Positions 43,500-63,444 of a stretch of 64,000 nt of DNA are shown one piece after another. The position numbers and the translations under genes were made by a program. The stretch is from an uncultured Spirochaetota bacterium. GTDB taxonomy: Bacteria; Spirochaetota; Brevinematia; Brevinematales; JAOACQ01. Under the pieces are notes generated by a model, which worked only from the letters and a program-made list of their open reading frames with translations, ran no database searches and was not told the DNA's origin. Positions within the stretch are counted from its first letter, which is position 1. Each line of letters opens with the position of its first letter. Location: contig CAWAOD010000016.1 of the NCBI GenBank assembly GCA_963783575.1, forward strand, positions 64,001 through 128,000. The letters run 5' to 3'.

Positions 43500-44282
43500 A
43501 TGGAAAATTTAAGAAAATACGGTAATCCGCCTTATTCTATCGCCGTTATTCATGGCGGGCCCGGAGCCGCCGGTGAAATGGCTCCCGTCGCCATGGCATT
43601 ATCAAAAAAAATTGGCATTCTTGAACCTCTTCAGACAAAAGATTCTCTTGAAGGCCAGATTATCGAACTTGACGATACATTGAAAAATAACGGATTCCTT
43701 CCGTTTACATTAATCGGTTATTCCTGGGGCGCGATGCTCTCATTTATTTACTCGGCCAGGTTCCCTGCATCGGTAAAGAAGCTTATTATGGTGAGCAGCG
43801 GCGTTTTTGATGAAAAGTACGCCCCGGGCATAATGGAAACCCGTCTTAAAAGGCTTAAAATTGCCGAAAGAGAAGAAGCCCTGGAAATCATGAAAAAATT
43901 AAGCGGATCTTTAAAAGAAAAAAATAACAAGCTTCTCGCAAGACTGGGTTCCTTATTTTCCAAATCGGATTCTTATGATCCAATAATAAATGAAAGCAAC
44001 GATATTGCCGTAGATGAAAATATTTATAAAAATGTCTGGAAAGACGCTGTGGAACTCAGGAAAGGCAGAGGTCTTCTTGATCTTGGGAAATTTATAAAAT
44101 GCCCGGTAATTGCAATCCATGGAGATTATGATCCTCATCCTGCCGAAGGAATCCGTGACCCGCTTTCGGGAATATTGAAAGATTTTAATTTCATTACATT
44201 GAAAGACTGCGGACATACCCCATGGCATGAAAAGCAGGCGAAAACAAAATTTTTCAATATTTTAGATAAAGAATTATCCTGA
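43500..44282 (+). CDS. Alpha/beta hydrolase
   Basis: HGGPG, GYSWG, HGDYD, CGHTPW. Confidence 0.9.
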   Translation: MENLRKYGNPPYSIAVIHGGPGAAGEMAPVAMALSKKIGILEPLQTKDSLEGQIIELDDTLKNNGFLPFTLIGYSWGAMLSFIYSARFPASVKKLIMVSSGVFDEKYAPGIMETRLKRLKIAEREEALEIMKKLSGSLKEKNNKLLARLGSLFSKSDSYDPIINESNDIAVDENIYKNVWKDAVELRKGRGLLDLGKFIKCPVIAIHGDYDPHPAEGIRDPLSGILKDFNFITLKDCGHTPWHEKQAKTKFFNILDKELS

Positions 44283-44401
44283 CACAGGGATTCGCCCGAG
44301 GGCGGGTTGCTATCGGAAGAACGCTGCGTCGAAACACACTCACGCCGATGCGGCCTTTATTCCACATCCTTGTCTCAATGTCGGCCGCCGGCCGCATCCG
44401 T

Positions 44402-46251
44402 GATTTTGCTGAAAAATGTAGAGGGCAATCATCGCTATTTATATAGATACGTGTTATAATATTAATAATAATTTACAAATGAGGACTTATATGTCTTTAC
44501 CAAAAGAAAAAGAAGAAAGTCTCTATTCGGCACATATAGTGATGAAAGATTTCCTGAAGCCTTCCGATCCAATGCAAGTGTTCAGTAAAGAGCTTTTCCC
44601 AATATTTAATAACGAGCCTTTTAAAGATTGTTATTCAGACGTTGGAAGAAATTGCAGATCACCTTCATTCCTTGCTATGGTAACATTACTTCAATGGAAA
44701 GAATCACTGTCCGACGATGAAACGGTAAAAGCCGTTAACACAAGACTTGACTGGAAAATTGGCCTGCATCTTGAAGTTGCCGCTAAGGATATCTTTGAAG
44801 CCAGCACACTTTGCGTATTCAGGAAAAGACTTATAGAAAACGATAAAATGTGCATCATATTTGACACTCTATTAAATCAAATCAAGAAAAAGGGTTTCAT
44901 TAGAGACCATGCCAAGCAAAGGATTGATGCGACTCATGTTGTAAAGCATTTAAACAGAATATCCACTACTGATCTTCTGTTTCGGGCAGTAAAATGGGTT
45001 GTTATAGAGATAGGAAAAATTGACCCTGAATATTATAACAAGATGATTCCGGATGATATACAGGAACGTTACAGTAAAGATTTCAGTTCCTTCGGATTAT
45101 CAAAAGAAAAACGGGGAGACAGGCAGGCAGAGATTGTTGAAGACGGTTTCAGGATTAAGAGGGGCATTATGGATAATCCGGCAGAAAGCCTTAAAGAATT
45201 GAGGCAATTAGAGATTATGGAAACTATTTTTTCTGAGAATGTGATCATCCGGACAAAGGAAGTGGGGAATAAAGAATTCATTGAAGTGGAAGAAATAGTA
45301 ACCCCGAAGCAAACGATTTTCACGCCTGACGATCCGACATTGAAACTGGGCAAAAAGGGTAAAACAAGTTGGGTAGGAGAAAAGTGCCATGTTGTTGAAA
45401 CCGCGGAGAAAGGGGAAATCAATTTTATAGTCGGTATGATACAACAGCCTGCGAATGAGAATGATAATAAAATTCTTCCTAAGCTCAAAGAGATGAATGA
45501 TGAAAGGGGCTTGAAGCCTGATAAGACATATGCAGATACAAATTATTTAAGCGGAACGGCAATAAGGGAATTCGAAGAACGTGGAGAAAATCTGATGGGT
45601 TATGTACAGAAAGACACTTCATTAAAGCCAAAGAATTTTAAATTAGAAAATTTCAAGATTGATATGAAAAACCTGACAGCTACCTGTCCGAAGGGCGTTA
45701 GAAGTGAAAGACATAAAAAAAATGGTGATAATGCTTATTGTATAATATTTCCAAAGAATGAATGTATGGCCTGCGCCTTCTTCAAAGATTGTGTAGCCGG
45801 AAGGGAAAAGATGCGCATAATAAGAGTCGGGATGGATTACGATCATTTGAGAAAACGGAGGGAAGAACAAAAAACCGCTAAATTTAAAAGCGAAATGAGT
45901 GTAAGGGCGCAGGTAGAAGGCACAATCAGCGAATCGGTAAGATTTCATGGACTCAGGAAAATAAAATATAAAGGAACAGAAGGCAGACAATTCCAGTATT
46001 TAATGACAGGGGCAGCGGTGAACTTCAAAAGATATATTAAGAAAATATTGTCATTACAACAAAAGTTGCCAATATCTGAAGGAATATTGGCTTAATAGAG
46101 TAACATAGAGGGTATAATGCTCAAAGAATCCGGGGAAAAAGAGGTAAATAATGACGTAAGGCAAAATTGATCTGTGTCTTAGGTAAAAATTAAAAAATAT
46201 TTAAAATTTGGAAAAGACGGTTGTTTTTTTACATTATTTTTCAGCAAAATC
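44402..46251 (+). mobile_element. Complete IS1182-family insertion sequence (1850 bp)
   Basis: 16 bp perfect TIR gattttgctgaaaaat; 6 bp direct repeat atccgt at 44396-44401 and 46252-46257. Confidence 0.9.
44479..46095 (+). CDS. IS1182-family DDE transposase
   Basis: LSD..T...RLDWK, RIDATHV, YADTNY, CP..C..C...C, R..VEGTISE. Confidence 0.9.
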   Translation: MRTYMSLPKEKEESLYSAHIVMKDFLKPSDPMQVFSKELFPIFNNEPFKDCYSDVGRNCRSPSFLAMVTLLQWKESLSDDETVKAVNTRLDWKIGLHLEVAAKDIFEASTLCVFRKRLIENDKMCIIFDTLLNQIKKKGFIRDHAKQRIDATHVVKHLNRISTTDLLFRAVKWVVIEIGKIDPEYYNKMIPDDIQERYSKDFSSFGLSKEKRGDRQAEIVEDGFRIKRGIMDNPAESLKELRQLEIMETIFSENVIIRTKEVGNKEFIEVEEIVTPKQTIFTPDDPTLKLGKKGKTSWVGEKCHVVETAEKGEINFIVGMIQQPANENDNKILPKLKEMNDERGLKPDKTYADTNYLSGTAIREFEERGENLMGYVQKDTSLKPKNFKLENFKIDMKNLTATCPKGVRSERHKKNGDNAYCIIFPKNECMACAFFKDCVAGREKMRIIRVGMDYDHLRKRREEQKTAKFKSEMSVRAQVEGTISESVRFHGLRKIKYKGTEGRQFQYLMTGAAVNFKRYIKKILSLQQKLPISEGILA

Positions 46252-46692
46252 ATCCGTGCGGCCTATCTCTGTGAGTGTGTTTCGCCTCCGCTTTACTTTC
46301 CGAAAGCCTTTTAAAAAAGAACAGCCGGGATTTAAAAAAAACGATTCTTTTATTATTATCAATAATCTGAAATTACCGGTTCTTTTCGATTATTGGACGG
46401 CTGTTGGGTGGAGATTTTGCTAAAAACTCATTTGTAAACTAAATTCTGGTGCAGGTTTATTTGATTCTCTTAGCTATTCCTTTCATTTTTTTGTTAATTC
46501 AATAACATTCTTCATTTTTTCATCCTCAGTCAGGTTTTCGAAAGGCAAAATTATCTAAGATAATTTGAACCGGTTTTAATAAATCAATGTCTTTAATTTC
46601 TTCTTTTCCGGATAGTTTGGCAATAATGTTGAGATTATCCTGCAGTTTCTTTATTTTATAAAGATATTCCGACTTAAGGATTTTGTATTCAT

Positions 46693-46965
46693 TTAAATTT
46701 CTTCATATATTTTATTTACCAGAACTTCATCTCCGGATTTCTTAATTTGACTTCCGATAATCCCGTCATAAATCCAGTTGCATAAAATTTCAACCTCTGA
46801 AATATTGAGTTCTAAAAAGTTTGTTGAATTATTAATTTTTTCAAACAATATCTGAAGTTCCGGTAAAATAAAATCATCAGAATCAAAATGATCGGATTTT
46901 AATTTTTTATTAACAAGCTCAATTAACCGGAACTTCTCCATTTGTGAAATATTCAGCTTAACCAT
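46693..46965 (-). CDS. Hypothetical protein, possibly the degenerate distal cassette
   Basis: 90 aa low-GC ORF next to a half attC-like repeat, same orientation as the array. Confidence 0.5.
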   Translation of the reverse strand: MVKLNISQMEKFRLIELVNKKLKSDHFDSDDFILPELQILFEKINNSTNFLELNISEVEILCNWIYDGIIGSQIKKSGDEVLVNKIYEEI

Positions 46966-46993
46966 AAAATACTCTCTTTAATTATAGTGTTAA

Positions 46994-47100
46994 AAAAACG
47001 GGCGAACCCGAGGAGCGCAGGAAAAACTTTTTCTTCTTCTCCGTTACGCCCTGAAAAGTTTTTTCGAGCACCGGAGCGATATAGCCGCTTATAGGTGAAG
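46994..47100 (-). repeat. Truncated attC-like site (one half of the long type)
   Basis: Near-identical to 54730-54825 (aaaaacgggcgaacccgaggagcgcagg...tatagccgct); other arm missing and GTT degenerate. Confidence 0.7.
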
Positions 47101-47118
47101 TTGGCCAGTCATTAATAA

Positions 47119-47391
47119 TCAGCTTATACTGATATGTAAATTCTTTCCTATTGCTTTTGCAAACTTCTCTAAAGTTGAAATCTTAATATCCTGAGCGTGA
47201 TTCTCAATTCTTGATATGACACTTTTTGTTGTTTTAAGTTTTGAAGCAATTTGTTCCTGGGTTAATCCGGAATTCATCCTTGCTTCTTTCAATAAATAGC
47301 CTATTTTAAACTCATCATATCCTTCCCAAAGTAATTTCTCGGCTTCAGGATTATTTTTATATCTTTCTTTGATATAGTCATTAAATTTCAT
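47119..47391 (-). CDS. XRE/HTH antitoxin (HigA-like), cassette gene
   Basis: LKEARMNSGLTQEQIASKL.TTKSVISRIEN; directly follows a toxin-like gene. Confidence 0.85.
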   Translation of the reverse strand: MKFNDYIKERYKNNPEAEKLLWEGYDEFKIGYLLKEARMNSGLTQEQIASKLKTTKSVISRIENHAQDIKISTLEKFAKAIGKNLHISIS

Positions 47392-47727
47392 TTATTTTCT
47401 CCTCAAATAATCTTTCTTTAATGCTTCTGCTAATTCAATTTCTTTTTTTGGTGTTTTTTGAGTTTTCTTTTGAAAACCATTTGTAAGTAATATAATATTA
47501 TTTTTATACAAAAAGCTTAATATTCGATCCTGAATCAATAATTATTTCCCAAATATCATCAGTATCAGGAAGTTTTTTAAAGTAGTTTGATGGAATGATA
47601 GATAATTCGCCTATGAGTCTTAAAACCCAGGAAACCTTTTAAAATCACGCTCCTTTAAACCATCTAAAAATGTTTGAACAGGAATTTTCCCATTTTCGGA
47701 TTCATAAAATTCAATTTCTCTTTTCAT
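47392..47727 (-). pseudogene. RelE/HigB (Gp49-like) toxin, inactivated by two frameshifts; absent from the ORF track
   Basis: Manual translation MKREIEFYESENGKIPVQTFL / VSWVLRLI...DDIWEI / LLTNGFQKKTQKTPKKEIELAE. Confidence 0.8.
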
Positions 47728-47734
47728 GATTTAC

Positions 47735-47763
47735 ATGTTAGCAAATATGCTTACCTCTGTCAA
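47735..47763 (-). promoter_or_regulatory. TA cassette promoter with internal operator-like palindrome
   Basis: TTGACA-N17-TAACAT; gtaagca-tatt-tgctaac between the boxes; ATG 7 nt downstream of the -10. Confidence 0.7.
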
Positions 47764-47798
47764 ATTATTGATAGCATTTATTTAGCCTGGCCAATTAC

Positions 47799-48139
47799 GT
47801 AGAACTCTGCGGCTATGCGAAGCCCGCAAGCCTTAGCGCCAGCCCTGCGCACTTAGGCTTGCAACTGTGGTGAGTCCGTAAACAATGACCTTTATTTTAT
47901 TTATCATCATAGTCAATTTGTACTCCTTTCTCTTTTTACAAAATCAAAAACGGGCGAACCCGAGGAGCGCCTGGAGCTGCTGCAGTGAGGACGCACCGCA
48001 GCAAGCCGAGGAGCGGAACGCCTATGCGTGGAGTCTATCGAAAAAGCACGTTTCTAAAAATTTTCTTTTTGGGAAATATGGAGTTAAAACGAATAAATTG
48101 ATAAAAATCAGGGTTTTGCGACAGGCTCCATGGTTGTAT
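47799..48139 (-). repeat. Long attC-like site containing a MITE
   Basis: gtagaac...gttgtat ends; first ~170 bp highly similar to 54582-54753; nested hairpins. Confidence 0.75.
48031..48128. mobile_element. Degenerate MITE (98 bp) with IS1182-like ends
   Basis: gagtctatcgaaaaa / ttttgcgacaggctc (12/15 inverted match); flanks cgtg/catg. Confidence 0.55.
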
Positions 48140-48161
48140 GAAGATGCCGCAAAATTTTGTT

Positions 48162-48881
48162 TTACTCTTTTTTTATAAATTCAATTAAATCGCCAATAAC
48201 AAAAGTATGCTTACCTTTACTAGCTATTTTTGAAATTGTTTCTAACCACTGTAAATATTTAATGTTGTCATCTTTCAACATAATTTCAGAAGCATTTTTT
48301 AAAGAACGTGCAGCAGCAACTTGTGTTCTTGCATTTTCTAAATCAGATTTAGCTCTAATAATTGATTCTAAATATTTTGAAAAAACATCTTGGATATCTT
48401 TTGGAAAATTTATGTCTTTTATAGCTACTCTCTCAATTTTCACACCATATTTATCCATAGATTTTTGAATAGATTCAATAACATTAATAAATAATTCATC
48501 TTTTTTATCATTTAATTCTAAACTTTTCACTTTAGCAATGAATTTTCTAATTTCAATTTGTGAAATATTATGTATAAATTGTTCAAGTTCAGCAATAATT
48601 TCATTATTAGTTTTGCTTAAATCAAGGTTTTTAATTGCTATTTCCGAATTTATCATTATATATGTTATTATATATGAAAATCTTAAAGAAATATTATCAT
48701 TAGTTATAACCTCTTGATTTGTAACTAGCAATAATTTCTCTGTTAATGGAAAGGAAATTAATTTATATTTTTTTGAATTTCCAAAAATAATGTAATATCC
48801 TGATGGTAATTTCTTTAAATATTTATTCTTAAAGAATAAATGTCCTTCATTATTTGGTTCAACATTAAATTTTATAAACAT
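48162..48881 (-). CDS. Soluble SPFH/slipin family protein, cassette gene
   Basis: QEVITNDN..LR, IKDINFP, ARTQVAAARSLKNA, LQWLET; RBS ggagga; no TM. Confidence 0.85.
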   Translation of the reverse strand: MFIKFNVEPNNEGHLFFKNKYLKKLPSGYYIIFGNSKKYKLISFPLTEKLLLVTNQEVITNDNISLRFSYIITYIMINSEIAIKNLDLSKTNNEIIAELEQFIHNISQIEIRKFIAKVKSLELNDKKDELFINVIESIQKSMDKYGVKIERVAIKDINFPKDIQDVFSKYLESIIRAKSDLENARTQVAAARSLKNASEIMLKDDNIKYLQWLETISKIASKGKHTFVIGDLIEFIKKE

Positions 48882-48904
48882 AAAATCCTCCTTCAATTTT
48901 AAAA

Positions 48905-49127
48905 GGTAATGGCACTGCAAATTACGGAGTATAAATTAATTTGAGAAATTTCTCAAAGGTATCTTTTATACCACAAAGTAATATGCAGCTATGTCATAGA
49001 CATTGCCATTACCAGTGCCATAACGGTGGCGCCGTTCCACCAATTCGGAGGGGAATCGAACCCCTAATCTACACCCGCAATACCCTGTATGTGTAGATCA
49101 AATTTATACAGGTGGCGGTTAAAAGCC
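48905..49127 (-). ncRNA. Candidate structured RNA (T-arm-containing tRNA/Y-RNA-like domain plus a long hairpin) upstream of the SPFH gene
   Basis: Minus strand aggggTTCGATTcccct T-arm, atctacac/gtgtagat stem, ccacc/ggtgg closing stem; 109 nt hairpin at 48905-49013. Confidence 0.5.
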
Positions 49128-49180
49128 ATTTTGTAAAAATTCGTACAACTGTGCGGCTATACGAAGTTGCCCGAAGCCTA

Positions 49181-50871
49181 CAGACTGTGTGAAAACTCAG
49201 TAAAATTTTATAGTAAAATCGATTAATTATACAAAAACTCCATTTTTTGATATATTTTTCAAGCTAAAAAAATCTTAGTTTCAAAAATCTATCCGAATAC
49301 GATAAACGATGGTTTATTAGCATCAAACCAGAGTCATAAGTCTCTTTATTCCCAATATATTCAATACTTTTATTAAATTATGAATGAATCCTGCCAAACT
49401 GGATTCCGTCAGAACGCCATCCTTTCCCTTCATTAAAAAATAACTGTAACCCATATTCCTTTTTATCGATCCAAATGGATGTTCACATATCTCTTTCCTT
49501 TTCTCTATGATCTTTTTCCCGGCTTCAGAACGAATTTTCCTCTTGAAGTTCTCAATTTCTTCTTTTCTAACTGGTACTTTGATACTTCGTCCTTCCACGC
49601 TTTCAGTACACTTATTTCTTACTTCACATTGGCTGCATAAGCCGCACTTGTACCTGACTATCTCTTTTCCTCCATTGACCTTCTCTACTTTTTTCCCATT
49701 TCTCACTAATGGGTTTCCCTCCGGACAATAATAAACATTTTGTCCCGGATCATATTTGAATTTATCAACCTGGTATTCTTCAGCAGGTACTCCTTTATTA
49801 TCTTCTTTGCCTCGAATCCTTGCCTTATGTCCGTCATCCGGATTCGGCATATATACGTTATGTCCCTTATCTATACATTCCAGTATCTGCGGTTCGCTGT
49901 AATAACCGGCATCCGATACTTTGACCGTTTCAGTCTCTACCTTAAGCTCGTCCTTTATTTCTTCTACTCGGTCACACATTCCTGCCATCTGTTTGATATC
50001 ATTGTTTTCATTCGTCACATCAATCACCACAATCAGTTTATTCGCATCATCTACTGCCATCTGCAGATTATATGCAATGTCGGATTTCCCTTTATCATTC
50101 ATAAACCGGCTTTCCGGGTCATTTGAATAATATTTCTCCATTTCAGGATTTCCCTCAAAAATCTTTTTAATAGCCTCAACTTTATCCTTTTTTGTTTTCA
50201 TTTTCTTTAAACGTTCCGCTATCTTTCCGGAAAGAAATTCAAATTCATTCTTTTCTTCCTTATCGTTCTTATCCATCTCATTCAAATATTCTTCGATCTT
50301 TTGATCTATTCTATGTATGATTTCTTCTATGTTTTTCCTATGATAAACATTGTTATTGTGGTTTTGCGCACTGATCTTGGTTCCATCAATTCCAACAACG
50401 TCAAATGATAAAAGCCCGGCTTTATGACATATCTTCAAAAATTCTCTGAATATCGACTGTATTCCCTTCTTATTATCTTTCCTGAAGTCGGCAATCGTCT
50501 TGAAATCCGGCGCTAGTCGTCCAGTCAGCCACATCAACTCTGTGTTTCTTCGGCACTCTCTCTCTAATTTCCTGCTTGTCCTGATTTTATTCAAATATCC
50601 GTAAATATAGATTTTTAAAAGTATTTCGGATTTATATGAACTTCTGCCGGTTGATGCTTCTTTTACTTTAAAACCAACTCCTTTCATATTTAGCTTATCA
50701 ACAAAAATATCTATAAACCTTACCGGATCTTCTTCTCCTAACAGATCTTCCAGTGTTTCATTGAACAGAACTATCTGATCCCTTGATTCTCCCTCAATAT
50801 GCTTCATCTTTTACTCCGATTATTTTTGTTCTAATAATTATAGCATATTTACTGTGTTTTCACACAGTCTG
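49181..50871 (-). mobile_element. Complete IS1182-family insertion sequence (1691 bp)
   Basis: TIR cagactgtgtgaaaac(t/a)cagtaaa 23/24; 3 bp direct repeat cta. Confidence 0.9.
49323..50807 (-). CDS. IS1182-family transposase
   Basis: LLKIYIYGY...SRKLE, PDFKTIADFRK, IDGTK, DAGY, EHPFG.IK. Confidence 0.92.
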   Translation of the reverse strand: MKHIEGESRDQIVLFNETLEDLLGEEDPVRFIDIFVDKLNMKGVGFKVKEASTGRSSYKSEILLKIYIYGYLNKIRTSRKLERECRRNTELMWLTGRLAPDFKTIADFRKDNKKGIQSIFREFLKICHKAGLLSFDVVGIDGTKISAQNHNNNVYHRKNIEEIIHRIDQKIEEYLNEMDKNDKEEKNEFEFLSGKIAERLKKMKTKKDKVEAIKKIFEGNPEMEKYYSNDPESRFMNDKGKSDIAYNLQMAVDDANKLIVVIDVTNENNDIKQMAGMCDRVEEIKDELKVETETVKVSDAGYYSEPQILECIDKGHNVYMPNPDDGHKARIRGKEDNKGVPAEEYQVDKFKYDPGQNVYYCPEGNPLVRNGKKVEKVNGGKEIVRYKCGLCSQCEVRNKCTESVEGRSIKVPVRKEEIENFKRKIRSEAGKKIIEKRKEICEHPFGSIKRNMGYSYFLMKGKDGVLTESSLAGFIHNLIKVLNILGIKRLMTLV

Positions 50872-50960
50872 CTAGCGCAGGGCAATTTGGGAGAGGGCGG
50901 TACTCCGCCGGAACCCGCTACCGGCCGTTGTGTGAAGTGCTTGGGGCGTATTTTCATTCA

Positions 50961-51908
50961 TTAACATATTTTAATTGCTACTCCTCCTTTTTTATTCCCT
51001 TCCTCAACATATTTATGCGCTTCTACAATTCTTTCAAGAGGATATATTTTATCGATTATAGGTTTAATTTTTCCTTCTTCAATCAATTTTGTTAAAAAAT
51101 CCAACCGCTTTGAATTTAATTTTAAAGCACCATCATCAATTGATACATATTTCCCACTTTCTGCTAAAGCATTTTTACATTCTTCTTTAAGCTTTGATGT
51201 TCTATATTTTCCAACAGAGTCCAAAATGAAATTAAATGTTGTATTTGCTTCTAATGTATCGTTAGTTGTGTAATCAATTGCATAGTCTGCTCCGAGTGAT
51301 TTGATAAAATCAATGTTTTTTCCGCTACAAACACCTGTTACCTTAGCCCCTAAATATTTGCCATATTGTATTGCAATGGTACCGGATGTACCCGAAGCTC
51401 CATAAATTAATATATTTTGGTTTTTTTGGATATTACCCATATCCATATATTGAAGAGCTAAAGAACCCCCATAAACTGCAGATGTAGCTTCTTCAAAAGA
51501 AATGTTTTTTGGTTTAATAGATACACATCCGGTAGTGGAATCTGTTTCTTTAATACAAGTGTATTCGGCATAAGCACCTAGATTAAATCCAGTCATGCCA
51601 TAGACCTCATCTCCTGGTGAAAATCTTTTTATTTTGCTGCCAATTTCTTTTACAACTCCCGAAAAAACAAGACCAATAATAGATTTTCTGGGCTTGAAAA
51701 CACCCATCATTAATCTAAAAGGGATAATTATATGAAATGGTAACTTTGAGCCTCGTATAAAAATATCACTATTTGTTACTGCAGATGCTTTAATATTAAT
51801 TAGTAGTTCATTATCTTTTGGTGCTGGTATTTTTACTTCTGATAGTTGAAGCACCTCTGGTGGTCCATATTTACTGCGAATAATTGCTTTCATTTTATTT
51901 TTATTCAT
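50961..51908 (-). CDS. NAD(P)-dependent quinone oxidoreductase/alcohol dehydrogenase (MDR family), cassette gene
   Basis: YGPPEVL, GAYAEY, IYGASGTSG, LGADYAIDY. Confidence 0.9.
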   Translation of the reverse strand: MNKNKMKAIIRSKYGPPEVLQLSEVKIPAPKDNELLINIKASAVTNSDIFIRGSKLPFHIIIPFRLMMGVFKPRKSIIGLVFSGVVKEIGSKIKRFSPGDEVYGMTGFNLGAYAEYTCIKETDSTTGCVSIKPKNISFEEATSAVYGGSLALQYMDMGNIQKNQNILIYGASGTSGTIAIQYGKYLGAKVTGVCSGKNIDFIKSLGADYAIDYTTNDTLEANTTFNFILDSVGKYRTSKLKEECKNALAESGKYVSIDDGALKLNSKRLDFLTKLIEEGKIKPIIDKIYPLERIVEAHKYVEEGNKKGGVAIKIC

Positions 51909-51955
51909 AAAAAGACTCCTTTCTATATCTTTATTTTAGCCGTGTACGCGCTGTT

Positions 51956-53672
51956 GAGCCTGTAGAAAAAGTCCGTCATTCATGTACAGAATATCGTATA
52001 TACTTTAAAATATATTGGAAATAAAATCAAGAGGTAAAAGCAATTATGGCAAGATATAAGAAAGTTAATTACGATCAAATGGAACTCATACCTGTCTCAT
52101 TCGATGAGCAGATTATACCGGGAACATTCGAATATACATTGAGCTTTCTTGTCGACAATAAAACTGATCTTAAAATCTTTGAGAATAAGTATAAGAACGA
52201 TGCTACCGGTGCCCCGGTTTATAATCCGCGGGTTAGGCTGAAGATAATACTCTACAGCTATTCCCGCGGCATTTTTACATCACGTGAAATCGAATATTTG
52301 AGTAAAACGAATATTATAGCCAAAGCCATTTCCGCCAATTCAATACCGCACTTTACTTCAATCGCCGATTTTGTTTCTTCGATGAAAAATGAGATAAATA
52401 CCGTATTCCTGAATATATTGATGGTTTGTGACGAACTGAATCTCATAGGCGGGGATATGTTCGCGCTGGACGGGTGCAAACTATCGTCAAATGCATCAAA
52501 GGAATGGAGCGGAACATTTAAGGATTTGAAGAAGAAAAAAGAGAAGCTGGAAAACCTGGTTAAGGAAATGCTTGATGAACATGAAAAGCGTGATCAGGAC
52601 GGCGGTTTTCCTGAGAAGGATAAGGAAAAAGATCTGGCACGGATCGAGAAGATTTTAAAGAAAGCTGAAAAGATAGAAAAGTTTCTGGAAAGTGAAAAAC
52701 CCAAAGACAAGGCACGGCATGGTGAAAAGCAGTCCAATGTCACTGACAACGAGAGTGCGAAAATAAAGAGTTCACATGGTGTTATCCAGGGCTACAACGG
52801 ACTTTCTGTAGTGGATTCGAAGTATCAGGTTGTGGTATATCCCGAAGCTTTTGGGAGCGGGTCTGAGGGGGAATTCCTGAAAGGGATGATCCGTAAAGCA
52901 AAAGTAGAATTGGGAAAAGATTTAAAGGATAAAATAATCACCGCGGACACCAATTATTTCAGCGAAAAGAACCTGAAATATATTTCGCAAAACGGTATGA
53001 AACCGGTCATCCCGGATACGAATTTCAGGAAGCGCGATTGCAGGTTTGAAACCGCTGACAGACATAAGCCTGCGAAGAAAGGGCAGTATACAATTGATGA
53101 TTTTCAATATGATCCGGAAAATAATGTTTATATATGCAAGAAAGGAGAGGAACTCCGGTTCAGAAATAACCATACGGTGAATCATATTACATATGCGAAG
53201 TATATCTGCCGGTTATCGGCCTGCCGCGGTTGTAAATTCCGGAAAGACTGCCTGAAAAGAGATACGGTCAGATACCGTACTCTACAAAGGCCATTGAATG
53301 CGGATAACAGACATTACTCGGACGAAATGAGAAAGTTCATAGATACACCTGAAGGCAGAAAGCTTTATGCGAAAAGAATGGCTATAGTTGAGCCTGTATT
53401 CGGGAATATAAGGGCATGTAAAGGTATGGATCGATTTACGCTGAGGGGAAAGGGAAAAGTGAATATTCAATGGGTATTATATAATACTGTGCACAATATC
53501 GGGAAAATTCAGGTCTATGGAGGTATATAATGGCATAGTGATGGAATAAAAGCAGTTTTGCCGGTAAATTCAGCCCGGTTTTATATAAAAAAGTGATTCC
53601 AGACAGATCAAAAAAAACATACTGTTTGGGAATGGAGTATTATTACCTGAAATTAACTTTTTCTACAAGGCC
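51956..53672 (+). mobile_element. Complete IS1182-family insertion sequence (1717 bp) in the GTT of an attC-like remnant
   Basis: TIR gagcctgtagaaaaagt vs ggccttgtagaaaaagt (14/17); gtt duplicated at 51953-51955 and 53673-53675. Confidence 0.88.
52046..53530 (+). CDS. IS1182-family transposase
   Basis: LKIILYSY..G..SREIE, PHFTSIADF, LDGCK, TDNES, ADTNY, VEPVFGNI. Confidence 0.92.
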   Translation: MARYKKVNYDQMELIPVSFDEQIIPGTFEYTLSFLVDNKTDLKIFENKYKNDATGAPVYNPRVRLKIILYSYSRGIFTSREIEYLSKTNIIAKAISANSIPHFTSIADFVSSMKNEINTVFLNILMVCDELNLIGGDMFALDGCKLSSNASKEWSGTFKDLKKKKEKLENLVKEMLDEHEKRDQDGGFPEKDKEKDLARIEKILKKAEKIEKFLESEKPKDKARHGEKQSNVTDNESAKIKSSHGVIQGYNGLSVVDSKYQVVVYPEAFGSGSEGEFLKGMIRKAKVELGKDLKDKIITADTNYFSEKNLKYISQNGMKPVIPDTNFRKRDCRFETADRHKPAKKGQYTIDDFQYDPENNVYICKKGEELRFRNNHTVNHITYAKYICRLSACRGCKFRKDCLKRDTVRYRTLQRPLNADNRHYSDEMRKFIDTPEGRKLYAKRMAIVEPVFGNIRACKGMDRFTLRGKGKVNIQWVLYNTVHNIGKIQVYGGI

Positions 53673-53709
53673 GTTGTACGAAGTTTGGCTGCCAATGTTT
53701 AACTAATAA

Positions 53710-54537
53710 CTATTTTGAAATAACAGTTACATCTTTATCTAAATTTTCGAATACATAATCTATATTGGAAGTAAATTCATTATATTGATCATTTTTCTCA
53801 ACATCGAAAATTACGATAATTAAAGAATCAAAATATTTTACATGTCTAACTGTTTGACCAAATAATCTATCATATTCTTGGAAATTAGGTGATTTCTTTA
53901 ATTCTATTGGATATTTATCATTTATTATTAAGTCGGCCTTACTATCACCTTTTTCTTCACTAACTTTATATTTTAAATTTTCAAAATGACTTCTAAGTTC
54001 AACTTTATAACCTTCTTCTTGATTACGCTTACGTGCAGGAATCCATGAAATTATAATATCAACAATTTTATCATATTCATTCTTTTTAATTGGTTCATAA
54101 TTAGGAATATTTAAATCTGAATAATTTTGAATAATATTTATGACATCAAACCATTCTGTTTGATTTTTGTATTTTTCTAGAAATATTTTAGGAATCTCTG
54201 ACCAAATTAAATTGTGTGGCGCATGTGTAATACTGCTAGCTCTTGGTCTAATATTTTCATAACTCCAATCTGCTTGAGTTGGAAATTTATTTAATTTTCT
54301 ACATAATTCACCCCACTTTATAAAAATATTATCAGTTGGTGTTTTTTCATGGAAAAATGTATTAGGTGTATCTCCACATTCTATTTGTAACTTTGAAAAT
54401 GCATTACTACCAAATAAACTACCTAAAACCTGACTAGTAATTTTTATATATTTAAGAAAACTAACAGAATCTGGTTTTTTACCCATTTTTTGTTTAAGTT
54501 CAAGATATTTTCTTTTGCATTCTTCTTTGTCTATCAT
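53710..54537 (-). CDS. Hypothetical cassette protein: N-terminal helical repeats plus C-terminal PD-(D/E)XK-like nuclease
   Basis: Two LxxKxxKxP repeats; E....ADLII....IELKK motif then D...GQ..RH. Confidence 0.55.
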   Translation of the reverse strand: MIDKEECKRKYLELKQKMGKKPDSVSFLKYIKITSQVLGSLFGSNAFSKLQIECGDTPNTFFHEKTPTDNIFIKWGELCRKLNKFPTQADWSYENIRPRASSITHAPHNLIWSEIPKIFLEKYKNQTEWFDVINIIQNYSDLNIPNYEPIKKNEYDKIVDIIISWIPARKRNQEEGYKVELRSHFENLKYKVSEEKGDSKADLIINDKYPIELKKSPNFQEYDRLFGQTVRHVKYFDSLIIVIFDVEKNDQYNEFTSNIDYVFENLDKDVTVISK

Positions 54538-54581
54538 AAATCACCTCAAAAAATTAAACTAAATGCTGGCAGCCAAATTTC

Positions 54582-54944
54582 GTACAACGGAGCGGCTATG
54601 CGACGTTTGCAAGCCTTAGCGCCAGCCCCGCGCGCTTAGGCTTGCAAATGTGGTGAGCCCGTAAACAATGACTTCTATTTTATTAATTATCATAGTCAAG
54701 TTGAACTCCTTTCTCTTTTTACCAAAAGCAAAAACGGGCGAACCCGAGGAGCGCAGGAAAAACTTTTCTCTTCTTCTCCGTTACGCCCTGAAAAGTTTTT
54801 TCGAGCACCGGAGCGTATAGCCGCTGTTGAGCCTGTAGAAAAAGCCCTTTTCTATAAAATTGCGAAATTATAATTCTATATTATATAATAAATTAATTTT
54901 CAGATATTTCTCAAAAATCCACTTTTCCTACAGGCTCGTTAGCT
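54582..54944 (-). repeat. Long attC-like site (about 251 bp without the MITE)
   Basis: aac-gg-agcggctatgcg pairs with cgtatagccgct-gtt with extrahelical bases; three internal hairpins. Confidence 0.8.
54829..54937. mobile_element. MITE (109 bp) with the same ends as the IS at 51956
   Basis: gagcctgtagaaaaag / cttttcctacaggctc (15/16); gtt duplicated at 54826-54828 and 54938-54940. Confidence 0.88.
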
Positions 54945-55002
54945 GATGGGCGCGGGAAAATCGGTACAATCAGCTAAGCCAAGGATGGCGATGTTTATTA
55001 TT

Positions 55003-56088
55003 TCAATCAAATGCATATTCACCGTTGTCTTTAACAAATGATGCGGCCACCTTCTCTGCTTTTACATCATCTTTTAAAATATATTTGCAATAATTATAAG
55101 TACTTTTTATGAAAGAATATATTCCACGACCATAAACATAGTCTGTATCATAAGTAGTCTTGATATTGTTCCTATTGCAATACTGTACAAGTTCCCAACC
55201 TGACATTTTATGATTTCTTTCAGATAAATATTCTGCTAATGAAACGATATTTTCTTTCCTTAAATCAAGATAATTATTATTTAATAATGAATCTATATTT
55301 AATGATTCTTTTTTTTTAATTTTTAATTTCTGCTTGATAAATAAATTAAGATTTGATAAGCTTTTCTCATATCCTATTTCCATATTTATCCAAGTAGGAT
55401 GAGCATGCCAGAAAATATGAGTCGAATCAATTTGACAATATTTTAAATGTTCATCAATGTCTTCAAAGTTAATTTTATCATCTGAAGTTAACTTAAAGTA
55501 ATTTTCGTCAAGATTCCAGTTTAAAATAACAATTATATCAGGTGATAAAGATTCAATTAAATAATGTACATTGTCCATTTTTTTAGAAAATGCTTTTACT
55601 TTATTATAATCATCCAATATAATATTTTGGTTATTTGGAATTTGGTCGTAAGGGCTAATAATATTAGTATTACCCCATACAAAACTACTTAAAATTTGAG
55701 GTATTTCATTATTTTTTAGTTTTTTCCAATCATTGATTTCATAAAATACAGCTAAAAATTGTAAAATATAATCCCAGAAACTTTTTCCAAAATTATTTGT
55801 ATAATTTAAAAATTCAAAATCATCAAAATCAACTTCATTCCTAAAAAGAGAATCAATTGAGCACTTATTAAAATGTTCAATAAAATCTTTCATAATACCA
55901 TAGCCTTTTGCATCTCTACCAATAAAAGCAATTTTATATTTTGTAAATGGATAACTTTTCCCAAAACTAGGAAGACAAGGTTCTGGTATCCCTGATAAAT
56001 TTAAATTTTCTATATCTAGCATAAATTGTTTTATCATTGGTAAATAAACATTAGTAAACTGATTTTTAATCTTCTCTAAATTTTCCAC
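55003..56088 (-). CDS. Hypothetical first-cassette protein, possible uracil-DNA-glycosylase-superfamily domain plus C-terminal domain
   Basis: GTG start with RBS aaggag; P.FGK.Y...KIAFIGRD, WGN, L.PDIIV and HAHPT motifs. Confidence 0.5.
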   Translation of the reverse strand: MENLEKIKNQFTNVYLPMIKQFMLDIENLNLSGIPEPCLPSFGKSYPFTKYKIAFIGRDAKGYGIMKDFIEHFNKCSIDSLFRNEVDFDDFEFLNYTNNFGKSFWDYILQFLAVFYEINDWKKLKNNEIPQILSSFVWGNTNIISPYDQIPNNQNIILDDYNKVKAFSKKMDNVHYLIESLSPDIIVILNWNLDENYFKLTSDDKINFEDIDEHLKYCQIDSTHIFWHAHPTWINMEIGYEKSLSNLNLFIKQKLKIKKKESLNIDSLLNNNYLDLRKENIVSLAEYLSERNHKMSGWELVQYCNRNNIKTTYDTDYVYGRGIYSFIKSTYNYCKYILKDDVKAEKVAASFVKDNGEYAFD

Positions 56089-56149
56089 AAAAATCTCCTT
56101 GCGGCAGGACGCCGCATCTTGTTCAAAACAAAAATCTCCCGTGCCTTTC

Positions 56150-56200
56150 AGCTAACTCGATATATACGCATTGCGTATATCATGCCATTTTGGCACTAAT
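56150..56200 (-). other. attI-like junction at the head of the array
   Basis: Minus strand G|TTAGCT core with no attC hairpin upstream; adjacent palindrome atatacgca-t-tgcgtatat (56162-56180). Confidence 0.55.
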
Positions 56201-56266
56201 TACACAGTTATTGAATTCATTGTTTAAAAACAATAAAACTTCCGGCCAACGGAGTGGAATAATTTA

Positions 56267-56296
56267 ATTATAGCATTTTAATTTATTGATTGTCAA
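56267..56296 (-). promoter_or_regulatory. Pc-like promoter firing into the cassette array
   Basis: Minus strand TTGACA-N18-TATAAT with TGn extended -10, about 110 bp upstream of the first cassette. Confidence 0.75.
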
Positions 56297-56909
56297 GAAG
56301 GCCATTCACAATCCCGCCGTGGTTTCCCGTAAATCTTAGGCTCAATGAAACAACCAGCTTAAATACTCCCCGCAGCATGAGTGCCATACAACCTCGTGTT
56401 GTTCGCCGAACTTTGGTTCGGCGGCCTGTGTGACAATAGTGAAGATATCATGGAACCTCCGTGTTCCATTGGTTGCTTGTGCTCACAGGTTTAGATAACA
56501 ATTCTTATCCCGTAGTGGTTTCCTGTTAGCATAGGATAAAGGATTAATTAAAGCTGAAAAAATCAAGCGCATTATCCACTTTCATAGGAAAAGAATTTCG
56601 AATGTGGTAAGCGCAGGATGTGCGTCAGCGGCGAATCAAAACAGGACGTTTTAATGAGTCGCTATTTTAGTAAATAAGAATATCAATTAATAATCGGATA
56701 ATGCAACTATTATTATCAGATATCTACGCTATGAAAACCACGTAGGGTGACTTTTCTTTTGGTCAATCAAAAGAAAAAGGACGAAAGCTCCTCCGCCATG
56801 GCTTTATGGCGATTTTCCGCTTTTAAGATAAAATACCTATTGTATTTTTAACATAATCAGTGTATGCTAATATCATAATTAAGAATTTTAAATTCAAAGG
56901 AGATTTTTT

Positions 56910-57773
56910 ATGACAATATTTATTCGCTTAACCGTGATTGTTTTAATATGCTGGGTATTCATTACCCCGGCATTCCCGATGGGCGGAAAAATTCAGAAAA
57001 TTCCCATGAAAACATACCCGAATATAGACATACCTGACGGTGAGTTTCTCCATTACGGTTATTATAACGGCGGTGAAAAAGAAAGCGACTATTATATGGT
57101 TACAAAAAAAATAACAAATGAAAAGGGTAAACTTTTGTACTGTACATACAGTCTGGAAAGACCGCTTTCCGGTAATATAAAACCGGCAAAAAAATATACG
57201 GAATGGCCGTCTTATATTTTGATCGATCCGGAACAGGGCTCGGTAATTGAATCCGAGTTAAATAACAACAATACCAATTCAAATGACCCGGACTCATCAA
57301 ATCCTTACTATAATATAGTTTACACGCATTATCAGATGTATACTGACAAGGGATACGTGGAATATATATCAAGGGTAAAAAACAAAAAAGAATTGACGGA
57401 AAGCAGGTACAGGGTTAACATAACTCCCGGTTTTCCATACTGGGACGGCCCGTCATTTTTTTATTTCCCGGCCCGTTTTATGGATATCCGGAGCCAGGGG
57501 ACAATGTTTTTAATAACGCCCGAGTACCTGAAAGACCCGATGCCTTTCTCCTTTAAATATGAAGCCGATGAAACAATCCGGACAAAAGCCGGTACTTTCC
57601 ATACAAAAAAACTAAGTGTTGTCACGGGCGATCCTTTCATAAGCAAGCTAAGCGAGCCACTGTTAAAGAGATTTGCAACCTGGATCGAGGATTCTGACAG
57701 AAGACTGGCTGTAAAGGTTCAGATCGCGTATGGTGGAGAGCTTGTGCTTGAGGAAATTTCAAATGTCAGATAA
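56910..57773 (+). CDS. Exported hypothetical protein (possibly DUF3108-like)
   Basis: Signal peptide; ETIRTKAGTF.T.K and WIEDSDRRL.VK motifs. Confidence 0.6.
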   Translation: MTIFIRLTVIVLICWVFITPAFPMGGKIQKIPMKTYPNIDIPDGEFLHYGYYNGGEKESDYYMVTKKITNEKGKLLYCTYSLERPLSGNIKPAKKYTEWPSYILIDPEQGSVIESELNNNNTNSNDPDSSNPYYNIVYTHYQMYTDKGYVEYISRVKNKKELTESRYRVNITPGFPYWDGPSFFYFPARFMDIRSQGTMFLITPEYLKDPMPFSFKYEADETIRTKAGTFHTKKLSVVTGDPFISKLSEPLLKRFATWIEDSDRRLAVKVQIAYGGELVLEEISNVR

Positions 57774-57802
57774 AAAGAAATGAATTATGCCCCAACAATC
57801 CT

Positions 57803-58117
57803 TTATTTTATGCTGTTAGCTACAAGTCCAATAATCAGCCCGCTGATTATACCGATGATGTTTATCGGCAGATAAGCCCTTGTGATTATAGATGTCGGAA
57901 GGCTTAAACCAAATCCTATTATCCCGCCGGCGATAACAGGGCTTACTCCAAGATTAACATTGGGAATGATCAGACCGACCATAAATCTTTCCAGAAAAGC
58001 CCCGAGGATCGCCTCTGTCTTTTTCCTGCTATCCTCGAATTTCATAGGAAGCATAATAACCGCGTCAAAAACTCCAAAAACAAGACCACAGATAACGCCT
58101 AAAAAAATCCTGTTCAT
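57803..58117 (-). CDS. Small integral membrane hypothetical protein
   Basis: 104 aa hydrophobic Gly-rich ORF, RBS aggagg. Confidence 0.75.
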   Translation of the reverse strand: MNRIFLGVICGLVFGVFDAVIMLPMKFEDSRKKTEAILGAFLERFMVGLIIPNVNLGVSPVIAGGIIGFGLSLPTSIITRAYLPINIIGIISGLIIGLVANSIK

Positions 58118-58168
58118 CCCTGCCTCCTAATTATCAGTTATTTTAAAGAAAGGACTTTAAATCAATTT

Positions 58169-58624
58169 TTATATCTTGTCTTTTCTGCCAAGTATTCTCT
58201 CGAATTTACTCAAGATAAGCCTGAAGTCTTCAGCTTTTTTGCTGAAATCATATCTCTCATCCTCAGGAATATCTTTTAGATGATGATAGATGAACATTTC
58301 AACATCTGAAAACTTGTTATGATAGCATTCGGACATAAATTCGGAATACAATTTCATCTCTGCTTCCGGGATTCTATTGGTGCCCGAAGAATCAACGGAA
58401 CATGTAAAAATGTGGCCGTAAAACAAAATACCGAGTTCGCTTTTTGCTAATGAATAAACAGGAATGTGCTGCTGATTGATTTTTGATAAGACCTTGTATA
58501 AATCCGCCGATGTTTCGGGGCTTAAAAATTTCATATTATCAAAGATTATTTCATTTTTATCTGTTTCACGGAAACTGATATCCTTATTAGCCGGACCGGT
58601 TTTACGGTCAATAAAATTATCCAT
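58169..58624 (-). CDS. Hypothetical protein
   Basis: 151 aa ORF with RBS gaggt. Confidence 0.65.
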   Translation of the reverse strand: MDNFIDRKTGPANKDISFRETDKNEIIFDNMKFLSPETSADLYKVLSKINQQHIPVYSLAKSELGILFYGHIFTCSVDSSGTNRIPEAEMKLYSEFMSECYHNKFSDVEMFIYHHLKDIPEDERYDFSKKAEDFRLILSKFERILGRKDKI

Positions 58625-59018
58625 TTTAACCTCAAATAAAATTATATTATATAAGTTATTATAATCATTATTATTAAAAAAATAAAGTTATTGACAGGCT
58701 GTAATTTTCTTTACTTTTAATGACTTAATTATTACTTTAAAATATTAATAAATATAATTATGACACTTCCCGTCTTTATATGAATAATAGATGATCCTCA
58801 AAAGATAATAAAAAGTGCTGATTGTTTCAAACAACACTGTTTTTTTTGATAAAAACAGATCATTATAAGGCTTTTTTAATATGCTTTTCTAATCATAACT
58901 TTTAATCTAACTTTTTTGTTCAATGTATTTTAAATTTATTAAATATAATAAAAGACTGAAATAGTGGAATAATTTTGCATTTTATTATAAAATCTTAAAA
59001 ATTCAGGACTGAATAAAA

Positions 59019-60389
59019 ATGAGATTATTAAATTTCTTCTTCGTTTTTTTATATATCTTTATTTATTGCCAGGTTTACGGCAATAAAACTCATGTTATCG
59101 AAAATGGAGTCCTTAATCTGTCGGATTGGAATTTTCAAAGAAACGGGACGGTTGAATTTATTCCCTTCCTGGAAGGAACTTCCGCCAGGTATGACAAAGC
59201 TGAGGATTCCGCAATATTTGATATAACAATAATCCTTCCCGCCGCAAAAACCATTTATATTCCGGAAAACCTTGCCGTAAAAATCCCACCGATCGACACG
59301 GAATATTGCTTATGGATAAATGATGAAATCGCCCTGTCAAACAGATTTGATTATATAAATCATTGGGTAGATGATTACCATAGAAAAACAGAGATAATAA
59401 GTTTTATTAATCACAACGAACCTTTTCATCTTATATTAAAAATCAGCCGGTTTTCCTATATTAAGTTGATAAGGGAGCCATTTCTGATAGGTACGGACAA
59501 ACAGATCCGGGAAATGAGACTGCAGAGTATGTTTAAAGAAGGCATGATAATCGGGGTATTTTTCTTTATTTTTATAATAAATCTATTTTTGTGGATTATA
59601 AACAGGAAACAATATTCCTTTCTGATTATTGGATTATTCTCGCTAATTGAGGCAGTTAATTTAATCGGAAGAGGCGAAACTGTCCGTTTTTTATCATTCA
59701 TTAACGACGACATATATTTAAAAACCCAGTTATTATTTCTTTATTCCAAATTATTATTGATCAGCTCATTTTTCTTATTTCTTTTTTATAAAAAGTCCAA
59801 TTTTTACGCTTATTGTATCTCTTCAGGAGTATTAATAGCTCTTTACCTGACATCCATTTTCCTTCCGGAGAAATATATAATATTATTCCTTTCTGTTTAT
59901 TATTTATTTTTATTAGTAATCCAGCTGTATTACCTTTCACAGGCAGTTTTACTGATGAAAAGCGAAAGAAAAAAGGCTTTTATATCTTTAATTTTAATTT
60001 CTGTTTTATTGGTTTCTTATTTTATAGATACAATAAATTACCATTTATACCTATTCAGCATAACGCTTATTTCTTACGGCTATAATTCAGCCTTAATTTA
60101 TGGTTTTATAGCATTCGCGATCGCTTATACTTATTATCTGTTCATAAACTTAAATATGAATGAAGCTATAAATATTTCTCTTGACAAGTTTGCTTCCGGG
60201 TACGGCTTGTCTCATAGAGAAACCGATGTTCTTATATATTTAATAAAAAGATACGGATATAAGGAAATTGCAAACAAACTTTTTGTATCTTATAAAACCG
60301 TTGAAACTCATGTTTATCATATTTACCAGAAAACCGGCGTCAGCAATAAAGAGGAATTGATAAATCTTCTGGAATCATATCAAAAATAG
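59019..60389 (+). CDS. 7TM-DISM-type membrane sensor fused to a LuxR-type HTH
   Basis: Signal peptide, NGVLNLSDW extracellular domain, ~7 TM helices, LSHRETDVL...YKEIANKLFVS.KTVETHV..IY.K. Confidence 0.85.
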   Translation: MRLLNFFFVFLYIFIYCQVYGNKTHVIENGVLNLSDWNFQRNGTVEFIPFLEGTSARYDKAEDSAIFDITIILPAAKTIYIPENLAVKIPPIDTEYCLWINDEIALSNRFDYINHWVDDYHRKTEIISFINHNEPFHLILKISRFSYIKLIREPFLIGTDKQIREMRLQSMFKEGMIIGVFFFIFIINLFLWIINRKQYSFLIIGLFSLIEAVNLIGRGETVRFLSFINDDIYLKTQLLFLYSKLLLISSFFLFLFYKKSNFYAYCISSGVLIALYLTSIFLPEKYIILFLSVYYLFLLVIQLYYLSQAVLLMKSERKKAFISLILISVLLVSYFIDTINYHLYLFSITLISYGYNSALIYGFIAFAIAYTYYLFINLNMNEAINISLDKFASGYGLSHRETDVLIYLIKRYGYKEIANKLFVSYKTVETHVYHIYQKTGVSNKEELINLLESYQK

Positions 60390-62535: not shown

Positions 62536-63444
62536 ATGATTTTGAAAGCCAACCTGTTTTTTTTAAGTATGTTGATCTTTCTGGGAGTATTATTTACATA
62601 CAGCTTTGTTTATAGCACAGTTTATACCGCAGGGCATGACGGCAGCGATGCCTGCTACTGGACCGGATCTGAAGAGACCAAGCTGCCGGGCGGAGTCGGC
62701 AAATATGCTAGCGCAAAATCAATCTTTGTATATAACGGTACTGTTTACACAGCCGGGTATGACAGCAGCGGCCATGCCTGCTACTGGACGGAAACAAACA
62801 TTACAATATTACCGGGAGGCTGGGGGGCAAATTCAATATTTGTATATAACGGAAAGGTCTATACTACAGGATATGACATTAACCGCAACGTTTTTTACTG
62901 GAAAGGGACAAATAAGATAATTTTACCGGGAGAAAAGGGCGAGGCATATTCAATTTTTGTAAACAACGGCATTGTCTATATCGCCGGGATTACCATAACA
63001 ACGAATGAAAAAGACGATATTTACGACGCCTGCTACTGGACTGGAACGAACAAAACAATATTACCGGACGGCTTTTTAGCTGATTCTATCTTTGTTAACA
63101 ACGACACTGTTTACACTGCCGGGTTGGACACCGGCAGCAACGCCTGCTACTGGTCCGGAACGAATATAACAATATTACCGGACGGCTTTTTTGCAAACTC
63201 TATTTTTGTTTATGACGGCACCGTATATACTGCCGGGTTGGACACCGGCAGCAACGCCTGCTACTGGGCTGAGACAAACATAACAATATTACCGGGCGGG
63301 CGGGAAATAAAATCAATGTTTGTAAATAACGGGACTGTGTATACAGTCGGGGATGACGGCAGCGCAGCCTGCTACTGGACAGGAACAAATAAAACAAAAT
63401 TATCCGATGGCTTTTTTGCGAACTCAATTTTTGTGACGCCTTAA
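62536..63444 (+). CDS. Exported repeat protein (about 7 repeats of ~38 aa, probable beta-propeller)
   Basis: Repeated SIFV..GTVYTAG.....ACYW...N..ILP. Confidence 0.8.
   Translation: MILKANLFFLSMLIFLGVLFTYSFVYSTVYTAGHDGSDACYWTGSEETKLPGGVGKYASAKSIFVYNGTVYTAGYDSSGHACYWTETNITILPGGWGANSIFVYNGKVYTTGYDINRNVFYWKGTNKIILPGEKGEAYSIFVNNGIVYIAGITITTNEKDDIYDACYWTGTNKTILPDGFLADSIFVNNDTVYTAGLDTGSNACYWSGTNITILPDGFFANSIFVYDGTVYTAGLDTGSNACYWAETNITILPGGREIKSMFVNNGTVYTVGDDGSAACYWTGTNKTKLSDGFFANSIFVTP

Follow-up and report, generated by a model that had tools for sequence, protein, structure and literature searches.

A promoter-attI head on an integrase-less cassette array of a Brevinematales bacterium, one of at least 12 in its genome and probably served in trans

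Integrons combine an integrase gene (intI), a recombination site (attI), a promoter (Pc) and cassettes bounded by attC sites, and the promoter normally expresses only the first few cassettes. Here we describe an array on the minus strand of a 64,000-nt stretch (the window) of contig C16 in the genome of an uncultured Spirochaetota bacterium of the Brevinematales (G000; C with a number denotes its contigs and G001–G011 its relatives' genomes). The array has a promoter, an attI and a row of cassettes, with no integrase, and we argue that it probably belongs to a distributed integron-like system that is served in trans and was active at least until recently. It resembles attC clusters that lack an integron integrase (CALINs), which carry two or more attC sites and no integrase nearby and for which, in the sections concerned, an IntI from elsewhere has been proposed (PMC4889954, PMC9024848); passages of PMC8618304 and PMC9668308 likewise treat CALINs and the possibility that an integrase serves them in trans. 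The window holds five attC sites or remnants, none with an integrase, but the row differs from a CALIN in having its own promoter and attI, a combination that recurs at 12 or more places. The chromosomal integrons of Treponema also have a Spirochaetota host and an integrase transcribed towards attI and cassettes, whereas their description assumes, where it deals with attI, one such site per integron (Wu et al. 2013, PMC3607928). According to the part of its description that concerns attI, IntegronFinder does not detect this site outside class 1 integrons (PMC9024848), and heads such as those reported below would therefore go uncounted.

Read down from position 56296, the array begins with a promoter, followed by a junction at 56156 that is not an attC and by five cassettes. 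The putative Pc (56267–56296) is of the sigma-70 type, with perfect −35 and −10 hexamers, an 18-nt spacer and an extended −10. It is the sole 12/12 match among 59 promoter-like sites between 46000 and 57000, a number near that expected by chance (mean 50). A conserved palindrome (56242–56252, minus strand) lies just downstream of the −10; a variant of it is present in each copy of the promoter module described below and it is a possible operator. We also considered the palindrome as a genome-wide SOS box and rejected this: of the 20 matches that have AT-rich DNA upstream, 13 belong to module copies and seven stand outside a promoter-like context.

The attI (56154–56180, minus strand; crossover GTT starting at 56156) is identical over 27 nt to a site at C5:458222, which immediately follows the gene of a tyrosine recombinase directed into an array of about 25 kb. 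A search of G000 gave seven matches within six mismatches: the 27 nt up to GTT are unchanged at four places, window included, the upstream flanks of which differ, and carry two to four changes at three more. At the six closest heads 153 of 162 positions are identical up to and in GTT, a figure that is high partly by selection since the heads were picked by that motif, and 29 of 114 are identical at +11 to +29. Entry of different cassettes at a single crossover would give such a drop in identity. With a GTT crossover at which homology to other arrays stops, the window junction is, by its sequence, an attI. The first-pass annotation of the window had described an attI-like head and a TTGACA-N18-TATAAT promoter directed into the array, and had proposed to look for the junction motif beside an integrase elsewhere in the genome; both elements hold up, and the motif does lie beside a recombinase.

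The promoter belongs to a module with 13 copies in G000 at up to seven mismatches; a fourteenth copy is more diverged and lacks attI. Twelve of the 13 lead, 115–412 nt downstream, to an attI-like site followed by low-GC or cassette-like sequence; the one remaining copy has an attC-like junction instead. The genome carries at least 12 promoter-attI heads at different places, and the window array, previously taken for a lone satellite, is one of them. Several more heads, which lack the module, came from profile searches whose training set included 17 of the sites; three weak heads (C10:108453, C12:18574 and C6:127613) were left out of the count. All 22 candidate heads lie 7–361 kb from contig ends, and, apart from a single 187-nt repeat and a single tandem pair, their upstream flanks are unrelated. 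At nine of the 22, the start of the first cassette is complementary to its own end in at least 12 of 16 nt, compared with 45 of 454 mismatched pairs, and eight of the nine ends fall at an attC junction or at a junction with IS-A, an insertion sequence (IS) described below. A genome-wide scan for such complementarity (360 rows) returned mostly chance matches and was used as a lead only.

Two heads in G000 retain an integrase tail of 27–30 residues between promoter and attI (E 3e-4 and 0.027). The module itself might have been an old integrase promoter, but this idea was not supported, for on inspection by eye neither the G000 integrase nor the integrases of six relatives have it upstream. In 11 genomes of the family the module gave only chance-level matches. 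A "leader" repeat of 85–140 nt has 21 copies in G000 (one at window 46321–46424), often behind a GC-rich palindromic repeat. Seven of these copies immediately precede a promoter-attI head (eight counting C15:196.6 kb), and ends that would mark the repeat as a carrier were not found. The first cassettes at C5:114977 and in G005 have no open reading frame (ORF) and are similar to an ORF-poor cassette of about 520 nt that recurs several times, in nearly identical form, within the G011 arrays (L038:7250–8300 and L039:6150–8600).

The first-pass annotation saw no tyrosine recombinase in the window, and a search for PF00589 indeed gave no match on C16 and 15 matches genome-wide. An intI-like gene beside attI was found only at C5:457–458 kb, and this gene, co-oriented with its array, is the sole cassette-linked recombinase of G000. 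The suggestion that an IntI may be encoded elsewhere is borne out as far as a cassette-linked recombinase is concerned, although this enzyme departs from a canonical IntI in its co-orientation, in its HARP fusion and in being some 41 residues shorter at the IntI insertion, and its gene is frameshifted twice in the assembly. No G000 protein reaches the TIGR02249 cut-off of 265 bits; a 219-residue piece of the recombinase scores 161.6 bits in a match that skips the IntI insertion. Across the phylum the cut-off is passed in 18 of 201 genomes, and in none of nine from this family. The segment between two catalytic patches is 66–67 residues long in all 19 short-type proteins (67 in the C5 enzyme), as compared to 107–108 in all 12 canonical IntI examined, which are the Spirochaetota enzymes over the cut-off, and 73 in two Xer proteins. 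The missing residues, about 41, fall at the IntI-specific insertion near patch III, the I2 helix. This helix is presented, in the relevant passages of PMC7790495, as the innovation behind attC recombination and is said there to make it safe.

Among proteins of known structure, VchIntIA/IntI4 (2A3V) shares with the C5 enzyme a SAM_4 plus a catalytic domain and is its best match both by sequence (143.5 bits; archaeal XerA, 141.2 bits) and by fold (E 1.5e-16; model with a predicted local distance difference test, pLDDT, of 91.9). The C5 enzyme differs from it in lacking the insertion and in having an N-terminal HARP-like domain, which is matched by PF07443 at E 0.01 in 19 of 92 homologues and in the G000 piece at E 0.003, below the cut-off. 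HARP domains act at junctions of single- and double-stranded DNA, and by analogy the domain may help to read a folded attC. At E 1e-30 the short-type family numbers 3,371 representatives, other recombinases among them, and in a quick tree canonical IntI are separate (support 100) and the short enzymes are not resolved as one clade. Relatives of the short-type integrase also occur on 42 plasmid records, 24 from Acinetobacter and 12 from Clostridium. Three of these, last among the matches listed, have a shortened N terminus, and one carries the annotation TnpF. Such plasmid integrase genes occur near tet(X) genes.

Indications of exchange come from G000 and from its relatives. The C5 array and an integrase-less array at C9:382 kb have one block in common, 2,638 nt long and 99.85% identical, which comprises two cassettes and part of IS-A and starts 2 nt before GTT, after different attC sites. 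An indication of rearrangement in trans, which the first-pass annotation had considered possible, is given by another satellite array; none of the window cassettes was found copied elsewhere in G000. The short-type recombinase is present in 8 of 31 genomes, G000 included. Intact homologues lie behind attI and cassettes in G011 (an uncultured Spirochaetota bacterium of the same family), G005, G004 and G002, and attI and cassettes also adjoin the short-type recombinase in a Bacillota and a Mangrovimonas record. Two recombinase copies of G011 (on its contigs C6 and C7) differ in their first cassettes and cassette order, and possibly represent alternative assemblies of a single variable locus. Heads without an integrase were seen in G011 (three), G005 (one) and G009 (one). 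In G011 one such head and an integrase-adjacent head share a first cassette (99.3% over 585 nt), the attC of which is free of IS, and the attI of the G005 head is the same as the integrase-adjacent attI of that genome.

The cassettes of the system are single-gene and co-oriented, with complementary ends and variable order, as in integrons. The minus-strand ORFs of the window row (55003–56088, 53710–54537, 50961–51908, 48162–48920, 47119–47730 and 46693–46965) have a GC content of 0.23–0.32 compared with 0.374 for the genome, and the spacers between the genes are related repeats (families D4, D7, D8 and D9), which agrees with the earlier description of low-GC genes separated by related palindromic AAC/GTT spacers. 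All features of the row lie on the minus strand unless stated otherwise. Cassettes 1, 2 and 4 start with GTT and have a complementary end that closes in AAC. Cassette 1 (54938–56156; 361 aa) has ends complementary at all of the first nine nucleotides and at 18 of 24, and its product matches no Pfam, NCBIfam or PADLOC family at the thresholds used. In cassette 2 (53673–54588; 275 aa) the ends are complementary at 21 of 24 nt, and the product has weak nuclease-like look-alikes, all under 0.9, which serve as a lead only. Cassette 3 is a remnant (50927–51908) that closes in AAC and encodes a member of the medium-chain dehydrogenase/quinone reductase family. Cassette 4 (48133–49149) encodes an SPFH/Band 7 family protein. 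Cassette 5 (47095–47805), which has a promoter-like site of its own at 47763 and a degenerate end core, carries a toxin-antitoxin pair, with a helix-turn-helix antitoxin (47119–47391) and a Gp49/RelE-like toxin gene split in three pieces (47392–47730). The trailing ORF (46693–46965; 90 aa, no family) lacks cassette ends and possibly falls outside the array. The searches made gave no function for cassettes 1 and 2 or for this last ORF.

The attC sites have AAC/GTT cores and fold on the bottom strand, as those of integrons do. Only attC1 (54582–54832, 251 nt) is complete, with no interruption downstream of its AAC. It shows a mean column identity of 94% with five attC sites of the C5 array, and its bottom-strand fold (z = −6.0; equalled by none of 200 shuffles) has a 2-nt bulge beside the R box. 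A canonical attC has one protruding base in the L box. In G000 it is instead the GTT-side arm that is longer, by 2 nt in 19 of the 23 attC rows and by 3 nt in three, one row being a duplicate, in a comparison made without a canonical attC control; some left arms have an extra L-box base. The attC2 remnant (51909–51955) keeps its left arm and has lost the right arm together with the GTT start of cassette 3, attC3 is interrupted by an IS, attC4 (47799–48139) holds a miniature inverted-repeat transposable element (MITE) four bases past its AAC, and attC5 (46994–47094) is a left part only.

The first-pass annotation described the array as genes and spacers, and had overlooked that its attC sites contain two IS1182 transposons and two MITEs. 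IS-A (51956–53672, plus strand; transposase 52046–53530) follows the AAC of attC2, with AAC repeated, and IS-B (49182–50870; transposase 49323–50807) lies inside attC3. Their transposases score 278.6 and 347.1 bits against the NF033551 cut-off of 270, placing them in the IS1182 family; terminal inverted repeats were found, and the 3-nt target repeat is seen for IS-A. MITE-1 (54829–54937), 109 nt with IS-A-like ends, follows the AAC of attC1, which is repeated so that the core is regenerated, and carries a 10/12 promoter-like site aimed at cassette 2. MITE-2 (48031–48128) is the one inside attC4. In G000, 21 of 23 left ends of IS-A follow AAC (background 1.5%), and its right ends are followed by AAC and then an attC left arm. 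Owing to the 3-nt repeat, insertion regenerates the attC core. Homologues of IS-A behave likewise: AAC precedes three of three left ends in G001 and seven of seven visible left ends in G011, and it follows eight of eight right ends in G011, where two of the targets do not resemble attC. IS-A shares its target with known attC-targeting insertion sequences and differs from them in being an IS1182-family DDE element that inserts after the AAC triplet with regeneration of the core. IS-B has 31 copies in G000 (99.3–100%, no indels) and MITE derivatives of about 100 nt, and nearly all of these sit at the centre of one other palindromic repeat family, one repeat of which lies in attC3. A third IS1182-like element (44390–46263; transposase 44479–46095, 216 bits, under the cut-off; four identical copies) sits in a palindromic repeat beside an inverted copy of the leader repeat.

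Several further observations concern the surroundings. The long leader of cassette 4 contains a stretch (49049–49065) that resembles the 3' arm of a tRNA or transfer-messenger RNA (tmRNA), with an Rfam tmRNA match at E 0.026, far below gathering; it has no second copy in the genome and no ARAGORN gene. An Rfam scan of 44000–60000 gave two sub-threshold matches and no family, and ARAGORN found neither tRNA nor tmRNA in the window. A 302-aa secreted-looking protein of 38-residue (114-nt) repeats, with no Pfam match, is encoded at 62536–63444. Elsewhere in G000 there are five tandem pairs of tyrosine recombinase genes (about 450 and 350–370 aa), unrelated to cassette arrays, at C5:2631–4984, C5:14–17 kb, C5:30–32 kb, C15:6–8 kb and C15:26–28 kb.

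In a distributed system served in trans, the window would be one docking station, consisting of a promoter, an attI and a cassette row with no integrase. The short co-oriented, HARP-fused recombinase without the I2 insertion would excise cassettes at folded attC sites and insert them at any attI in the cell, and the module promoter would express the first cassettes. The heads could be copies of the platform that lost their integrase gene, some of them later copied as promoter-attI units; such a loss would be easy because the co-oriented layout lets promoter and attI stay together. IS1182 elements and MITEs would parasitise the attC core, letting rows decay. Service of attI by an integrase supplied in trans has a laboratory precedent in the experiments of 10.64898/2026.03.17.712381 that deal with it. 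More tentatively, and as a possibility short of a probability, the many separately promoted attI stations, spread as units, may share one cassette pool through a single such recombinase.

A number of findings weigh against this proposal. No copies of the window cassettes turned up elsewhere in G000, and the row is decayed: the start of cassette 3 is lost, the right arms of attC2 and attC5 are missing and the toxin gene is fragmented. The complementarity threshold is failed by 13 of the 22 candidate heads. No integrase trace was found within 2 kb of ten of the 12 module-linked heads, that of the window among them, so that an origin by deletion is seen for two heads only. Among 53 cassette starts there is a single shared block, and since its right edge lies in IS-A, homologous recombination has shaped it too. 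Recombinases near attC that lack the IntI domain were judged not to be IntI in the passage of Cury et al. that treats them (PMC4889954). Finally, the G000 recombinase gene is frameshifted twice, each time at a short homopolymer run (within C5:457,440–457,480 and 458,090–458,105), the neighbouring ORFs look intact, and multi-copy IS in G000 show only two indels in 116,467 bases. On the other hand, patchy assembly errors do exist in G000: comparison with 248 ORFs of G011 gave 120 orthologue pairs, of which 10 were flagged, and after three tandem paralogues and the integrase were dropped six genes with nine events were left, six of the events within 14 kb. Contigs from two DNA sequencing runs in which this genome has a small share span neither frameshift. 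The evidence on whether the frameshifts are real is therefore mixed, and continued action in this strain depends on the answer.

The same decay, together with the IS load, the frameshifted C5 enzyme and the integrase tails at two heads, would also be expected of inert fossils, that is, of heads that were each once a complete integron loaded in cis, lost the integrase and are now decaying as CALINs with a head; loss of intI has been proposed as an origin of CALINs in the part of PMC8618304 on that question. We regard this as rather unlikely, because the 27 nt of attI stayed unchanged while flanks diverged, the near-identical block shared by C5 and C9 starts at GTT, and integrase-less and integrase-adjacent heads of G011 have the same first cassette.

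That shared block raises a different question, namely whether cassettes are moved by the IS1182 elements, through transposition or through RecA exchange between IS-A copies, and not by the recombinase. The preference of IS-A for AAC fits this, as does the change of identity inside IS-A, beyond which different attC arms follow. The left edge of the block, however, lies at GTT where there is no IS, the cassette common to two G011 heads has an IS-free attC, and the conservation of attI is left unexplained, which makes the IS an improbable vehicle. An artefact of assembly or binning, in which the heads would be variants of a single locus in different strains or stem from a mixture of genomes, appears very improbable. 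It is true that G000 is 89.85% complete with 4.91% contamination, that the small contigs C7 (52% GC) and C17 (49%) stand out from the 33–39% elsewhere as possible contamination, and that the two G011 copies may be alternative assemblies. Nevertheless, the 22 candidate heads lie well inside contigs with unrelated flanks, and the same IS copies occur at 99–100% identity on all these contigs.

In summary, the window row would work like an integron, falls under the definition of a CALIN and departs from the canonical system at the integrase insertion. The full-text literature searched, which includes few subscription journals and no supplements (PMC9137128 and PMC3971601 among its papers), gave no description of genomes with multiple attI, of an integron integrase lacking I2 or of an attC-targeting IS1182. 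If served in trans as proposed, some elements now taken for dead CALINs would be functioning platforms, and at least 12 working heads would let many cassettes be expressed at once. Tools that require the IntI domain would miss or mislabel such a system. An enzyme without I2 nonetheless sits behind shuffled arrays in the relatives. Should the proposal be true, it would represent a natural integron integrase family without the defining helix, one that reads asymmetric attC hairpins in another way. The short enzymes would then be a living test case for the origin of IntI, and with an intact homologue and matching att sites at hand this origin can be tested by a standard assay.

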